Shown: piece by piece, positions 2,920 through 60,522 of the stretch
Layout: each line of letters begins with the position of its first letter
Position numbering within the stretch: position 1 is the stretch's first letter
Origin: a virus
Length of the DNA stretch: 64,000 nucleotides
Virus record (IMG/VR): IMGVR_UViG_3300028571_000009
Strand: one strand, 5' to 3'
The notes under the pieces: model-generated
Databases searched by the model: none
What the model was told of the DNA's origin: nothing
Seen by the model: only the letters and a program-made list of their open reading frames with translations
Position numbers and translations under genes: made by a program

Positions 2920-2973
2920 ATATTTTAACGACTCAACAATTTTTCTTATATTAATACAAAATAAATAATCTAC

Positions 2974-3006
2974 ATGATTGAATATCCAAAAATGTTGACT
3001 CAATGA
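2974..3006 (+). pseudogene. orphaned 5' remnant of dpdA (MIEYPKMLTQ*)
   Basis: Matches dpdA N-terminus MTVYPKM and has a similar TATATT...AAAATAAAT leader; lies just before the HNH cassette. Confidence 0.55.
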
Positions 3007-3015
3007 TATTTATAC

Positions 3016-3078
3016 TAAACCGAAAGGTTACCTGGAACGGTATTGGTTTGGCGACTTTATATTAGTTCCAGGTTTTTT
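3016..3078 (+). ncRNA. candidate antisense small RNA / terminator upstream of HNH-1
   Basis: AACC-GAAA-GGTT hairpin, 9-bp stem 3030-3038/3065-3073 plus T-tract; loop 3040-3052 complementary to 3102-3114. Confidence 0.55.
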
Positions 3079-3116
3079 ATTTTCTAGATATTTATATGTA
3101 AGCCAAATCAATACAT

Positions 3117-3932
3117 ATGAATTACCAAAGAATCTACGATTCGATTATCAATAACGCAAAGTTATTAGAAGAGTCAAGAAAATTACAAAAGAAGCAGAAA
3201 CTTAATTATTTCGAACGACATCACATTTTACCGAAATGTTTGGGTGGTAATAATGATGAAAGTAATCTAGTTTATCTAACGGCAAAAGAGCATTATCTTT
3301 GTCATCGATTATTAGTTGAAATATATCCTGAAAATAGAAAGTTGAAATATGCTATTTGGTTAATGGTAAGCGGATATAGTATAACCAAACAACGATACAT
3401 CCCTTGTAGTAGAATATATGAGCAAATTAAACGATTACATGCAGATAATGTAGCCGCTCAATTTATTGGTAAGCCCAAATCTATTGAACATCGCAAGAAA
3501 TTATCTGATAGCAATATCGGCAAAACATTATCGATTGAACGTAGATTGAAAATGTCCAATACGCTACGTGGTATGAAGAAGTCCGAGGAGACTAAACGTC
3601 GGATGACTAAACCGAAGCCAATTGTTACTTGTCCGCATTGCGGAGTAACCGGGGGCAAAAATACTATGGTCCAATGGCACTTTGATAACTGTAAATCACT
3701 GCCCGGTAATGAACACATACATGATATTAGAACTAATACATTACATGAATGCCCGAAATGTGGTATAAAAAGTACAGCATTATCAAATATGGTTCGATAT
3801 CATTTTGAAAATTGCGGAAAGAAAGTTGATTTACGAAAATGTCCATATTGTGGAAAAGAAATGGATGCTAGAAATGCTAAGAAGTATCATTTCGATAATT
3901 GTAAGTTAAAGAATTTGGTAATTGTAAGATAA
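3117..3932 (+). CDS. free-standing HNH homing endonuclease with NUMOD3-like and C2HC Zn-finger repeats
   Basis: ERHHILPKCLGG...NLVYLTAKEHYLCH; three CxxC...HFxNC repeats. Confidence 0.85.
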   Translation: MNYQRIYDSIINNAKLLEESRKLQKKQKLNYFERHHILPKCLGGNNDESNLVYLTAKEHYLCHRLLVEIYPENRKLKYAIWLMVSGYSITKQRYIPCSRIYEQIKRLHADNVAAQFIGKPKSIEHRKKLSDSNIGKTLSIERRLKMSNTLRGMKKSEETKRRMTKPKPIVTCPHCGVTGGKNTMVQWHFDNCKSLPGNEHIHDIRTNTLHECPKCGIKSTALSNMVRYHFENCGKKVDLRKCPYCGKEMDARNAKKYHFDNCKLKNLVIVR

Positions 3933-3943
3933 ATTGTTATATT
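3915..3943 (+). promoter_or_regulatory. promoter TTGG-N19-TATATT driving dpdA
   Basis: Bipartite motif recurring about 20 times upstream of starts. Confidence 0.65.
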
Positions 3944-3961
3944 AGAAAAATAAATTAAACT

Positions 3962-9817: not shown

Positions 9818-9846
9818 TTGGAATTCTAAATAATTTTACTTATCTT
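9818..9846 (+). promoter_or_regulatory. promoter TTGG-N19-TATCTT, ATG 6 nt downstream
   Basis: Family consensus. Confidence 0.65.
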
Positions 9847-9852
9847 AATAAC

Positions 9853-17475: not shown

Positions 17476-17504
17476 TTGGATAATTGAAATTAATTTCTTA
17501 TCTT
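17476..17504 (+). promoter_or_regulatory. promoter TTGG-N19-TATCTT, ATG 6 nt downstream
   Basis: Family consensus. Confidence 0.65.
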
Positions 17505-17510
17505 AATAAT

Positions 17511-21361: not shown

Positions 21362-21373
21362 CAATATTTATAT

Positions 21374-21433
21374 TAAACCGAAGGGTTACCCGGGTTGTGT
21401 TAGTTTCGCAACTACAATGCACCCGGGTTTTTT
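21374..21433 (+). ncRNA. candidate antisense small RNA / terminator upstream of HNH-2
   Basis: AACC-GAAG-GGTT hairpin, 8-bp stem 21388-95/21421-28 plus T-tract; loop 21396-21409 is the perfect reverse complement of 21460-21473. Confidence 0.6.
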
Positions 21434-21474
21434 GATACAGTTTTTGATATTTATATGTAGCGAAACTAACACAT

Positions 21475-22416
21475 ATGAATTACCAAAGAATCTACGATTC
21501 AATTATCAATAATGCAAAGTTATTAGAAGAATCAAGAAAATTACAAAAGAAACAAAAGCTAAATTATTTCGAACGACATCATATTCTACCAAAATGTTTG
21601 GGTGGAAATAATGATAAAAGTAATCTAGTTTATTTGACTGCGAAGGAACATTACTTGTGCCATCGACTACTTGTCGAAATTTATCCCGAAAATAGAAAGT
21701 TGAAATATGCTATTTGGGCCATGATGCGTACAAATACCGAACAACGTAGATACACTCCATCATGTAGAATATATGCTATCATCAGAGAAGAATGGCTTAC
21801 GGCTTTTATTTTAGATAGAAATACCGTTGAATCCAAAAAGAAAATATCAGCAGTACATAAAGGGAAAGTCGTATCAGAATCCACCCGAGATAAAATACGT
21901 GCAGCCCGTAAATTGCAGATACATTATCCCAAAACATTAGAACAAATTACTAAAACTATTAACACCAAGCGTAGATTGGGCAAGCTGGGGCATTCGGGTG
22001 AAACTAAAAGACGTATATCAGCGGCGAAGCTAGGTGGTAAATATCCGCCCATGACTGCGGAACATAAACGAAAAATACAAACTGCTCTGAAAGGTAAGTT
22101 ACGCAGTAAGAGTATATGTCCGCATTGTACTAGATTAGTATCAACGAATAATCAGTATCATTTTGACCGCTGCAAACGCAAACCCGGGAATGAACATATT
22201 ATATTTATACGGTGTAGGTCTAAAAAAGAGTGTCCGTTTTGTAAGTTGATTGTAGATACTGGTAACCGTGTACATTTTGATAATTGTAAGCTTAAGCCGG
22301 GGTATGTATATGTTAAACGTCCGGCGATTAAAGTGACATGTACATGGTGTAACAAAATTGTCGCAAAAGGTAATAGATATCATTTTGCAAATTGTAAAAA
22401 AAATCTTATATTATAG
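21475..22416 (+). CDS. free-standing HNH homing endonuclease, paralog of 3117-3932
   Basis: First 81 aa 80/81 identical to HNH-1; NUMOD3-like and three CxxC...HFxxC repeats. Confidence 0.85.
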   Translation: MNYQRIYDSIINNAKLLEESRKLQKKQKLNYFERHHILPKCLGGNNDKSNLVYLTAKEHYLCHRLLVEIYPENRKLKYAIWAMMRTNTEQRRYTPSCRIYAIIREEWLTAFILDRNTVESKKKISAVHKGKVVSESTRDKIRAARKLQIHYPKTLEQITKTINTKRRLGKLGHSGETKRRISAAKLGGKYPPMTAEHKRKIQTALKGKLRSKSICPHCTRLVSTNNQYHFDRCKRKPGNEHIIFIRCRSKKECPFCKLIVDTGNRVHFDNCKLKPGYVYVKRPAIKVTCTWCNKIVAKGNRYHFANCKKNLIL

Positions 22417-22419
22417 ATA

Positions 22420-47308: not shown

Positions 47309-47358
47309 CATTTTTGGTAGTATAAATATGTATTCTTATATTTATAGTAAAGCGGTTT

Positions 47359-49822: not shown

Positions 49823-49851
49823 TTGGTTATATCAACAAATTATCTTATCTT
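49823..49851 (+). promoter_or_regulatory. promoter TTGG-N19-TATCTT, ATG 6 nt downstream
   Basis: Family consensus; 44/46 nt identical to the copy at 54545-54590. Confidence 0.65.
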
Positions 49852-49857
49852 AATAAT

Positions 49858-55075: not shown

Positions 55076-55107
55076 TAAGTATTGCACTACCCGGGTTTGG
55101 TAAAATA

Positions 55108-55143
55108 TTGATAATCAAGGGGGTATAACTAATTGATAATCAA
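55108..55143. promoter_or_regulatory. paired TTGATAATCAA boxes
   Basis: 55108-55118 and ATAACTAATTGATAATCAA 55125-55143. Confidence 0.7.
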
Positions 55144-55175
55144 GGGCGTTATTTTCTAGATTTCTTACATATTCC

Positions 55176-55233: not shown

Positions 55234-55854
55234 ATGTTAAGTAAAAAGAGCAAAGCTCAGCTTGAGCAAGTTAAGAAGTATATTCTGGATAATCACGTAA
55301 CCAGCTTTCAAACCCGCACGGCGCTAGACCGATTGATTGAGAGAATTAAGTTTCCGCGTGTTCGTAAGCTGGAAGAGATGTACGGGACTATAAACCGAAC
55401 ATATTATAAGAATCAGCAATATGACCCGATTCGTAACGAGTTGGTTGATAGTGGATTCTTGAGTATGAAGCGTGTTGGTAACCGATGTGAGTTTACTGTT
55501 ATAGGTGGGAAAGAGCGTGAAGCGTTTAATAAATTTATGGGGTTTCCGGTTGAGGCGTTTACAAATCTCGCAAATATCGTGTCGAGATTACCGATGCTAC
55601 CCACCAAAGATACTAGTATGCAATTTGCAGAACCGGCTAAACCTAATGGTGGTGATTCACCGGACTATGATTACTTATTACAGAAAGTAGCGTCTCTGAG
55701 ATGTAGTAATACCGCGTTACAGAAAGAAAACGAGAGACTTCAAGCTGCTGCGGCCGACCCTTCTGTGTTACCGTTTGTACTAGCAATTACTGGAGTATCA
55801 ATATTAGCGATTACCGCCATAATAGTCATTGGGTTAATGGCCTCGCATAACTAA
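55234..55854 (+). CDS. hypothetical protein, coiled coil plus C-terminal TM
   Basis: ORF track; hydrophobic C-terminus. Confidence 0.6.
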   Translation: MLSKKSKAQLEQVKKYILDNHVTSFQTRTALDRLIERIKFPRVRKLEEMYGTINRTYYKNQQYDPIRNELVDSGFLSMKRVGNRCEFTVIGGKEREAFNKFMGFPVEAFTNLANIVSRLPMLPTKDTSMQFAEPAKPNGGDSPDYDYLLQKVASLRCSNTALQKENERLQAAAADPSVLPFVLAITGVSILAITAIIVIGLMASHN

Positions 55855-55865
55855 TTGATTATCAA
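55847..55865. promoter_or_regulatory. box ATAACTAATTGATTATCAA
   Basis: Repeat family member, 22 nt upstream of promoter 55888-55916. Confidence 0.7.
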
Positions 55866-55922
55866 AGGGATAAAATTTCATATGTCCTTGTTCGTTTGAA
55901 CTATAATCCTTATCTTAATAAT

Positions 55923-56222: not shown

Positions 56223-56502
56223 ACTATTGAAAATCACTCGAAAAGAGTATAAAGAGCTTTTGCCCGTGATGATTAAAATCAGGGAACGTTTTGTTAAGGC
56301 TACAGGTTGTGATTACTGTAAGGTATTCACCCACCGAAACTGTGATGGTGGTAGAACAAAGCTATGGTTGCATCGCGGTAAGCAAACGTGTAAATTGCCC
56401 GCTACGGTAACTGTTGGGAAGTATGTATACTCAGTAGAGAAATATACCATGGGTGGTATGTATGGACACGATATTGCAATTCTTTTTAAAAGAATCGCAT
56501 AA
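56212..56502 (+). CDS. hypothetical protein
   Basis: Stop lies in the repeat box. Confidence 0.55.
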   Translation: MASKLLKITRKEYKELLPVMIKIRERFVKATGCDYCKVFTHRNCDGGRTKLWLHRGKQTCKLPATVTVGKYVYSVEKYTMGGMYGHDIAILFKRIA

Positions 56503-56517
56503 CTGCTTGATAATCAA
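56499..56517. promoter_or_regulatory. box ATAACTGCTTGATAATCAA
   Basis: 33 nt upstream of promoter 56551-56579. Confidence 0.7.
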
Positions 56518-56627
56518 TACCGTTCATTTGGAAGAAAGTTTGCGAATTCCTTGTATATATGAGCGTCTTATCTTATCTTTAAGTATAAGGGTTAGATATT
56601 TAACCAAAACATAAAAATTAATAAAAA

Positions 56628-56828
56628 ATGGCAAAATTAAACGAAAACATTAATTACGGACAAATGGTATTGGATTCAATTGACCAGTTGAATGGGGCTA
56701 AGAAAATCAGCGCTACCTATATCCAAACAGAAGCAAAAGAAAACTTCGGTGAAGAATTCAACCAAAAAGAAATGGAAGAATTAACAAGATTATTTCTAGA
56801 GCAAGGTGTTATAGTTATAACTAATTGA
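56628..56828 (+). CDS. hypothetical protein
   Basis: Cassette gene ending VITN* in the repeat box. Confidence 0.6.
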   Translation: MAKLNENINYGQMVLDSIDQLNGAKKISATYIQTEAKENFGEEFNQKEMEELTRLFLEQGVIVITN

Positions 56829-56835
56829 TAATCAA
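56817..56835. promoter_or_regulatory. box ATAACTAATTGATAATCAA
   Basis: 32 nt upstream of promoter 56868-56896. Confidence 0.7.
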
Positions 56836-56944
56836 TACCATTCATTTGGAGAAAGTTTCCAAATAACTTGTATTTTTCACCCTGAATCCTTATCTTTAAG
56901 TATAAGGGTTAGATATTTAACCAAAACATAAAAATTAATAAAAA

Positions 56945-58272: not shown

Positions 58273-58506
58273 ATGAGTAATACTAAAACTGTAATAGGTA
58301 GATTTTCTGATTATCAGAAAGCTAAGATTTGGATTGAAGCGATGTTACCATATGACGTCGACAGGCTATTGCCCGCAGCAAACCAAATTATCAATGAAAG
58401 CTACCAATATTGCATCATATATGATGGTCTCAATAAACCTAATGGTAGAACTCTAACTATACCCAGCCCGCAACTATCTGAGAATCAAGTGGTTATAACT
58501 AATTGA
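58273..58506 (+). CDS. hypothetical protein
   Basis: Ends VITN* in the repeat box. Confidence 0.55.
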   Translation: MSNTKTVIGRFSDYQKAKIWIEAMLPYDVDRLLPAANQIINESYQYCIIYDGLNKPNGRTLTIPSPQLSENQVVITN

Positions 58507-58513
58507 TAATCAA
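58495..58513. promoter_or_regulatory. box ATAACTAATTGATAATCAA
   Basis: 32 nt upstream of promoter 58546-58574. Confidence 0.7.
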
Positions 58514-58580
58514 AGGGATAAAATGCCGGAAAGTTTCCAAATAACTTGTATTTTTCAGCCGGTATCCTTATCTTAATAAT

Positions 58581-60133: not shown

Positions 60134-60177
60134 ATAACTGCTTGATAATCAATTAACTATAACTAATTGATAATCAA
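60134..60177. promoter_or_regulatory. two tandem boxes
   Basis: 60134-60152 and 60159-60177; second is 32 nt upstream of promoter 60210-60238. Confidence 0.7.
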
Positions 60178-60274
60178 TATCATAAAGTTTCGGAAAGTTT
60201 CATTTGGCCTTGGTCAATCGGTATCTATCTATTATATTTAAGTATAAGGGATAGAAATAAAAACCCTTCAAATT

Positions 60275-60460: not shown

Positions 60461-60522
60461 TTACTTGGTAGTGTCAATCGAATTAATTATCTTTAAGTAT
60501 AAACCTAATAAAAATTAAAAAA

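Follow-up and report, generated by a model that had tools for sequence, protein, structure and literature searches.

In phage T4 and its relatives, the expression of several genes is limited by an inhibitory RNA hairpin that sequesters the ribosome-binding site and encloses the gene's own late promoter. This scheme applies to I-TevI, I-TevII, I-TevIII, segB and Aeh1 mobE, and to the late genes soc, e and 49 (PMC2988022). The means by which free-standing homing endonucleases are prevented from harming their own phage are understood only in part, and this is listed as an open area (PMC2988022). The c4 antisense RNA of phages P1 and P7 (Rfam RF01695; PMC5320573) is found on the same strand as its target and upstream of it, and its loops pair at or near the ribosome-binding site. 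It is cut by RNase P from an operon transcript, has two such loops, and belongs to the antirepressor operon of a temperate phage (PMC5320573). The terminator loops of Escherichia coli small RNAs (sRNAs) have recently been implicated in regulation, apparently without base-pairing (PMC11979758). Here, we describe a putative control block upstream of an HNH homing endonuclease gene in which a loop of terminator form is complementary to the leader of that gene.

RESULTS

The phage and its HNH genes

We analyzed a 64,000-nucleotide stretch of viral DNA (IMG/VR record IMGVR_UViG_3300028571_000009; hereafter, the window), which is part of a 182-kb contig. All of its genes are on the + strand, and its GC content is approximately 35%. 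The family-B DNA polymerase shares 39% identity with that of Microcystis phage Mel-JY01 and approximately 30% with those of T4-like cyanophages, indicating that the window is a portion of a distant, uncultured T4-like phage. No near-identical DNA was found in the phage collection searched, and an HNH gene of the HNH-1 type was not found in Mel-JY01, the closest cultured relative. Shine-Dalgarno sequences are absent before HNH-1 and most other genes of the window.

HNH-1 (3117-3932, + strand; ATG at 3117) codes for a Mob-type HNH homing endonuclease of 271 residues, which is approximately 35% identical to homing endonucleases annotated in T4-like coliphages. The first 81 residues are almost identical to those of the product of HNH-2 (ATG at 21475), and the two proteins diverge afterwards. 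At the DNA level, their 5' ends (3117-3360 and 21475-21718) are approximately 90% identical, and the C-terminal zinc-ribbon/NUMOD regions are unlike each other. HNH-0, which is located on the same contig ahead of the window, has a nearly identical leader, yet the protein identity is just 35%. Comparison of the three genes suggests that the 5' ends of the cassettes have undergone gene conversion or have exchanged modules with one another.

Architecture of the block upstream of HNH-1

The first-pass annotation had noticed, ahead of HNH-1, two copies of a motif, a small hairpin, a larger stem-loop followed by a T-tract, and a loop segment complementary to the leader. All these features were found, at the following coordinates on the + strand. 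The upstream copy of the class-2 promoter-like motif ATATTTATA (P1, 3006-3014) marks the left edge of the HNH cassette. It is followed by a 4-bp hairpin, AACC-GAAA-GGTT (3018-3021/3026-3029), which has a GAAA loop and directly abuts the stem of hairpin T (3030-3083). The latter comprises a 9-bp stem (3030-3038/3065-3073), a partly self-paired 26-nt loop, and a U-tract (T6-A-T4 in the DNA, 3073-3083). With its GC-based stem, hairpin T has the form of an intrinsic terminator; a simple terminator scan missed it because the loops permitted in that scan are of 3 to 8 nt only. Inside the T loop, a segment that we call the anti-leader (3040-3052) can form 13 bp, one of them G-U, with the leader arm (3102-3114), which ends 2 nt before the AUG. 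The proximal copy of ATATTTATA (P2, 3088-3096) is located between these two arms.

A feature that had been missed is hairpin S (3090-3122), present in the minimum free energy structures, in which 3090-3100 pairs with 3112-3122 across the AUG. Its 5' arm is made of the 3' half of P2 plus TGTA, and it can form solely in RNA begun upstream of P2. In read-through RNA, the leader arm is therefore displayed in the loop of a second hairpin. Given a T4-like spacing, transcription from P2 would start near 3102, and the predicted leader of 14 to 15 nt is open. The start region covered is the AUG and the 13 nt before it, with no Shine-Dalgarno sequence to sequester. A tRNA scan of the window gave nothing relevant, and an Rfam search gave no relevant match, either at the gathering score or at E values up to 10.

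Seven copies of the block

The whole architecture was found in seven copies, at HNH-1 (W1), HNH-2 (W2), L227, L228, L229/L230, L089 and L010; those beyond the window come from the same contig and from four other metagenomic phages. The arm sequences differ between copies, and their complementarity is always kept. The L227, L228 and L229/L230 copies were found via a protein search, after which the DNA was fetched, the L089 copy came from a metagenome scan, and the L010 copy came from IMG/VR. L227 is the HNH-0 locus, 2,987 nt before the window start, with confirmed overlap. L228 is the orthologous locus behind denV. The HNH identities are 75% for L228, 57% for L229/L230, 63% for L089 and 47% for L010. 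Scanning IMG/VR by pattern, either for the small hairpin with the stem or for P1 with the small hairpin, returned chance matches only, except for the L010 contig.

The block of HNH-2 (21364-21477, + strand) is the second complete copy in the window. It has P1 at 21364-21372, the small hairpin at 21376-21387, the terminator stem at 21388-21395/21421-21428 followed by a U-tract, P2 at 21447-21455, and the ATG at 21475. Its loop arm (21396-21409) and leader arm (21460-21473) form 14 perfect base pairs, with three pairs altered on both sides relative to HNH-1. The HNH-1 and HNH-2 blocks resemble each other from exactly the first ATATTTATA onward, with unrelated DNA farther upstream, and thus the block belongs to the mobile cassette.

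Individual elements are retained to different extents. P1, which reads ATATTTAT followed by A or T, lies 15 to 16 nt before the T stem in five of the seven copies (W1, W2, L228, L229 and L010), in four gene contexts. It is missing in L227 and L089, where a class-1 promoter-like motif is present in its place, 31 to 32 nt before hairpin T. In L010, both motifs share one variant, and the same hairpin S is built from other sequence. The small hairpin is kept in W2, L227, L228 and L010; in L229 its place is taken by another hairpin, of 5 bp, and in L089 it is absent. Relative to the orthologous L228, the control block is approximately 95% identical, the same as the flanking genes, whereas the HNH gene is only 74 to 84% identical; the few changes in the block are all outside paired and motif positions.

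Covariation of the loop and leader arms

For each of the 102 genes of the window, the 28 nt preceding the ATG were scored for contiguous complementarity to the 200 nt upstream. HNH-2 ranked first (14.0) and HNH-1 second (12.5), for a mean of 7.1 (standard deviation, 1.35), and the score of 12.5 was reached at 0.27% of 1500 random positions. Six copies were then aligned for a covariation count, which covered the loop/leader helix, written as a pseudoknot, together with the small hairpin and the outer stem of the terminator. For the loop/leader helix, 96% of the cells are paired and 5 of the 13 pairs have changed on both sides, a covariation score that none of 500 shuffles reached; sliding the partner by one column reduces pairing to 52% or less. 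The arms of the seventh copy, L010, are 15 nt long, unrelated to the others and complementary at every position. The stem of hairpin T covaries as well (two pairs with double changes), the TTTT after it is invariant in the six aligned copies, and the U-tract is invariant in all seven.

The 13-bp pairing that had been noted at HNH-1 is thus real, far beyond chance and, as the covariation indicates, selected at the RNA level. Complementarity, the absence of which upstream of homologous HNH genes had been named as grounds for abandoning the idea, is present in the six further copies. Altogether, the conservation pattern indicates that loop/leader pairing is functional and under selection.

The inverted repeat might instead matter as DNA, as a cruciform or a site bound by a protein; it might be left over from cassette insertion, or it might have arisen by chance. 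Homing endonucleases can indeed bind operator-like sites near their own promoters, as I-TevI does (PMC2988022). However, compensatory changes keep the pairing and not the sequence, and in three copies a G-U pair occurs at the same position, which would be a C-A mismatch on the other strand. The G-U pairs fit the + sense only, arguing that the pairing acts at the RNA level. Chance is excluded by the scoring of genes and random positions and by the covariation shuffles. We regard an explanation of this kind, at the DNA level or by chance, as very improbable.

Promoter-like motifs of the phage

The window contains 13 exact matches to ATATTTATA, 12 of which are on the + strand, and 11 of the 19 + strand copies of the 8-nt core fall within the 12% of the DNA that is non-coding, an approximately fivefold intergenic enrichment. 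At eight other genes, ATATTTATA is found 5 to 20 nt before the ATG (at gene 29611, the ATG is at +6 from the motif), the exceptions being the two upstream copies at the HNH cassettes. By its strand bias, intergenic enrichment and position before gene starts, ATATTTATA is promoter-like in this phage. In form, this class can be likened to the late promoter of T4, which consists of a single element. TATTTATA was not found directly upstream of the major capsid gene in two related IMG/VR phages, and therefore the label "late" is unwarranted for the motif. A PHROG scan of ten proteins encoded between 52 and 62 kb yielded no late sigma factor.

A second motif class, TTnCTTAT(A/C)TTAA, is found at 2540-2559, 9833-9852, 17491-17510, 49838-49857, 55903-55922 and 58561-58580, among other positions. 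The -10-like hexamer of class 1 ends 5 to 6 nt before the ATG of about a dozen genes, many of them of replication type, and farther upstream for a few. This spacing fits leaderless early mRNAs that would start at the AUG in a genome devoid of Shine-Dalgarno sequences.

An orphan class-1 promoter-like motif, TTCTTATATTAA, is located at 2943-2954 on the + strand, ahead of a leader and of an ATG (2974) whose reading frame is only 10 codons long. This motif is a putative source of transcription into the HNH-1 cassette. The 86-nt stretch from 2920 to 3005 is absent from L228, where the denV stop codon adjoins P1, and it has a GATATTT direct repeat on both flanks. Similar orphan promoters with ATG stubs are found just before the cassette at L089, L229 and L227. 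At or within the end of each HNH cassette of the window, there is a class-1 promoter-like motif for the next gene (3933-3961 and 22385-22419), an arrangement by which the cassette would terminate incoming transcription and restart it for the downstream host gene.

Other regulatory-type elements were seen in the window. At 47321-47346, TATAAATAT faces ATATTTATA, and the two fold into a hairpin of 10 bp that covers the promoter motif of gene 47359. An element, ATAACTnnTTGATAATCAA, with the palindrome TTGATAATCAA, is present in at least eight copies upstream of small genes between 55 and 60 kb, with sites at 55100-55160, 55847-55876, 56499-56532, 56817-56850, 58495-58524 and 60134-60192, and looks like an operator. 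A third promoter/leader block, TTATCTTTAAGTATAAGGG, occurs approximately 30 to 55 nt before four genes (56573-56599, 56890-56916, 60232-60258 and 60487-60513); two genes that follow it, 56628 and 56945, are paralogues with 109 nt of upstream sequence in common.

Accessibility of the start region and proposed silencing in cis

We computed the cost of opening positions -15 to +6 in RNA begun 100 nt upstream and in RNA begun 6 nt after P2. Across the seven copies, it is 6.9 to 14.0 kcal/mol in read-through RNA (7.6 kcal/mol for HNH-1), compared with 0.3 to 1.2 kcal/mol in P2-started RNA. In RNA initiated at P2, the leader arm of HNH-1 has virtually no structure (opening cost, 0.3 kcal/mol), and the HNH-1 anti-leader costs 4.9 kcal/mol to open. 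What the analysis shows is the energy difference between read-through and P2-started RNA, together with the sequence features, their conservation and their covariation. The other class-2 genes of the phage have the same arrangement, with the promoter motif inside a hairpin, and their mean opening cost, HNH genes excluded, is 7.8 kcal/mol versus 4.0 kcal/mol for the remaining genes (Mann-Whitney P = 0.0013). A long-range loop partner for the leader is exclusive to the HNH cassettes in this phage. Among other MNYQRIY-type HNH genes of IMG/VR, a hairpin that encloses a promoter motif and ends at the ATG is also found (e.g., L032, L050, L051, L166 and L075). Class-1 promoter-like motifs and genes lie directly upstream of HNH-1 on the same strand, consistent with earlier transcription reaching it.

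From these sequences we infer promoter activity, termination and repression. We propose that the 110-nt block is a built-in expression control of the mobile HNH cassette that operates mainly in cis, the nuclease being translated only from P2 RNA, and we put the probability of this reading at about 50%. Hairpin T and its U-tract would terminate transcription arriving from upstream genes and promoters. RNA that reads through would carry the anti-leader in the T loop, and two structures would close its start region: hairpin S across the AUG, and a kissing complex or pseudoknot between the T loop and the leader in the S loop; loading of the 30S subunit would thereby be blocked. RNA begun at P2, approximately 14 to 15 nt before the AUG, would lack both inhibitory arms and would be translated. 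The terminated RNA would be an unavoidable by-product, which may add repression in trans. Such a scheme would be of the type described for T4 I-TevI, segB and Aeh1 mobE, adapted to genes devoid of Shine-Dalgarno sequences and with the inhibitory arm housed in the terminator.

The second ATATTTATA could, alternatively, be merely the 5' arm of hairpin S within a single structured leader, the mRNA starting at P1 or farther upstream and passing through T. The pseudoknot would then keep translation constitutively low or await a factor or RNA cleavage, as must be the case for two-hairpin leaders that have no inner promoter (L016 and L017 types). In related HNH genes of IMG/VR, a single promoter motif does precede two hairpins that extend to the ATG and whose complementary loops covary. 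However, the inner motif exactly matches the 9-mer found 5 to 20 nt before eight other gene starts, it is kept in all seven copies, including L010 where both motifs share a variant, and the phage's other class-2 genes likewise have a promoter inside a hairpin. A single leader is therefore improbable in our estimation.

Two designs of leader were seen in the 130 nt upstream of MNYQRIY-type HNH genes from IMG/VR and metagenomes: design A at L016, L034, L037, L009, L022, L119 and L121, and design B at L017, L030, L036, L040, L046, L049 and L085. In both, the order is a single TATTTAT-type motif, hairpin 1 and a terminator-like hairpin 2 reaching as far as the ATG, and the two loops are complementary and covary between loci.

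Silencing in cis does not account for everything. It gives no role to P1 or to the small hairpin, despite the fixed 15- to 16-nt spacing of P1 to T in five of the seven copies. Hairpin S alone closes the start region, and hence the conserved loop/leader helix needs a reason of its own. In addition, the geometry in cis would be strained, because a helix of all 13 bp shares 3 nt with the stem of S and crosses that of T.

A possible trans-acting antisense RNA

The first-pass annotation had proposed a separately promoted and terminated sRNA of approximately 60 nt, resembling a type I antitoxin or an RNAI-type antisense RNA. The pairing, the terminator hallmarks and a promoter-like motif at fixed spacing in five of the seven copies agree with an sRNA. 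The likeness to those families did not hold. The HNH-1 product, a 271-residue endonuclease, is not a small (less than approximately 60 residues) hydrophobic membrane peptide as expected of type I toxin-antitoxin systems, and the candidate RNA is upstream on the same strand, not opposite or divergent. Similarly, a cis-antisense RNA of the RNAI/CopA kind is at odds with the same-strand location, with a complementarity limited to 13 to 15 nt rather than full, and with the absence of a replication-primer or leader-peptide target. Neither family was matched in Rfam. The c4 model, RF01695, gave no match at the gathering score or at E values up to 10, and the single pairing loop here differs from its three stem-loops and two target loops.

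A discrete RNA of approximately 60 nt that carries the anti-leader can reasonably be predicted, because hairpin T has terminator hallmarks and the promoter-like ATATTTATA precedes it at fixed spacing in five of the seven copies. If transcription arrives from upstream and is terminated at T, short RNAs with the anti-leader must arise. In the version that makes most of this RNA, P1, or another nearby promoter in some copies, drives a dedicated antisense transcript ending at hairpin T, whose loop would bind the very 5' end of the P2 mRNA, so that initiation is blocked or the mRNA decays. As sRNA and mRNA would come from the same promoter type and the same template, nuclease output would be low and independent of genome copy number. 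We hold this tentatively, as a possible account that falls short of an even chance.

Several observations speak for a dedicated RNA. The P1 motif is identical to the gene-start motif and its spacing is fixed in W1, W2, L228, L229 and L010, every copy has a promoter-like motif just upstream (of class 1 in L227 and L089), and the U-tract is invariant. In six of the seven copies, the leader arm begins at +5/+6 from P2, at the predicted 5' end of the mRNA. The loops are without other target in the window. Interaction energies were obtained as the arm-only duplex energy plus the opening energies, as RNAcofold and duplexfold on whole RNAs are misleading: intermolecular pairing in hairpin loops is disallowed and interior loops are over-extended. 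Net energies are -10.7 to -14.8 kcal/mol for cognate loop/leader pairs, versus -5.5 and +3.0 kcal/mol for the HNH-1/HNH-2 cross pairs.

Conversely, P1 is missing in two of the seven copies, and with T4-like spacing its start site would lie inside the 5' arm of the small hairpin. The anti-leader is partly self-paired in its loop and takes 4.9 to 7.6 kcal/mol to open. Selection for orthogonal arms was considered and rejected: the HNH-0 and HNH-1 arms are one pair apart, and arm divergence is not above that of unpaired loop residues. Finally, a layout with the second promoter-like motif between the two arms is precisely what the known cis scheme would predict, and this scheme explains all features other than P1. 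It is only tentatively that we entertain each HNH cassette as the carrier of its own same-strand antisense sRNA, running from P1 to T (approximately 60 nt), whose terminator loop would titrate the 5' end of the short-leader mRNA, a portable and self-matched governor that could diverge into separate specificities within one genome, as between HNH-2 and HNH-0/1. We rank silencing in cis with escape from P2 first, a dedicated trans-acting RNA second, and a single structured leader third.

DISCUSSION

Silencing in cis with escape from P2, if correct, would extend the T4 device of a promoter inside an inhibitory structure to very distant T4-like phages that do without Shine-Dalgarno sequences. It would also mean that an intrinsic terminator loop can act as an inhibitory arm and that a control module travels with its nuclease gene as a single cassette. 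The seven natural copies, with their matched arm changes, make a ready mutational series for the loop/leader pairing. Should the RNA act in trans, it would be the first known antisense sRNA directed at a homing endonuclease, and would provide a compact repressor module that can be reprogrammed.

If there is action in trans, the nearest analogues would be the c4 RNA of P1/P7 and RNA-OUT of IS10, which brings about multicopy inhibition. In the IS10 RNA-OUT/RNA-IN pair, the loop of a stable stem-loop RNA reportedly base-pairs with the very 5' end of the mRNA, thereby covering the start region, a finding credited to Kittle, Simons, Lee and Kleckner in 1989. As in IS10, a mobile element would limit its own enzyme; unlike RNA-OUT, which comes from the opposite strand, both RNAs would be sense here, with complementarity stemming from an inverted repeat. 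The block resembles c4 in its position upstream on the same strand, in pairing at the start region of the downstream gene, and in a specificity that differs between relatives through matched changes in RNA and target. It departs from c4 in having one loop, located in a terminator, a nuclease as the target, and a lytic-type phage as the host. With type I pairs (hok/sok and tisB/istR), ColE1 RNAI and R1 CopA, it would share the curbing by an sRNA of a potentially harmful product at the start region, possibly with loop contact first.

Leaders of the L016 and L017 types are similar in that complementary, covarying loops, one of them in a terminator-like hairpin, directly precede a selfish nuclease gene. 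In contrast with these, a promoter motif is present here between the partners, which would allow an unrepressed mRNA with a short leader, and the terminator hairpin is the upstream partner rather than the downstream one.

The T-even homing endonuclease hairpins share the most with this locus under the cis reading. In both cases a free-standing Mob-type HNH gene of a T4-like phage has its start region closed in RNA from upstream promoters, and its own promoter, putative here, is inside the structure and would yield open transcripts. The differences are that no Shine-Dalgarno sequence is present, the covered region consisting of the AUG and the preceding 13 nt; that the promoter 8-mer is TATTTATA rather than the TATAAATA of T4; that an extra promoter motif and a small hairpin are present upstream; and that a second, long-range inhibitory arm is found in an intrinsic terminator loop. 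By this comparison, the core of the proposed mechanism is the known T4 scheme, and what appears to be new is the placement of the anti-leader in the loop of an intrinsic terminator.
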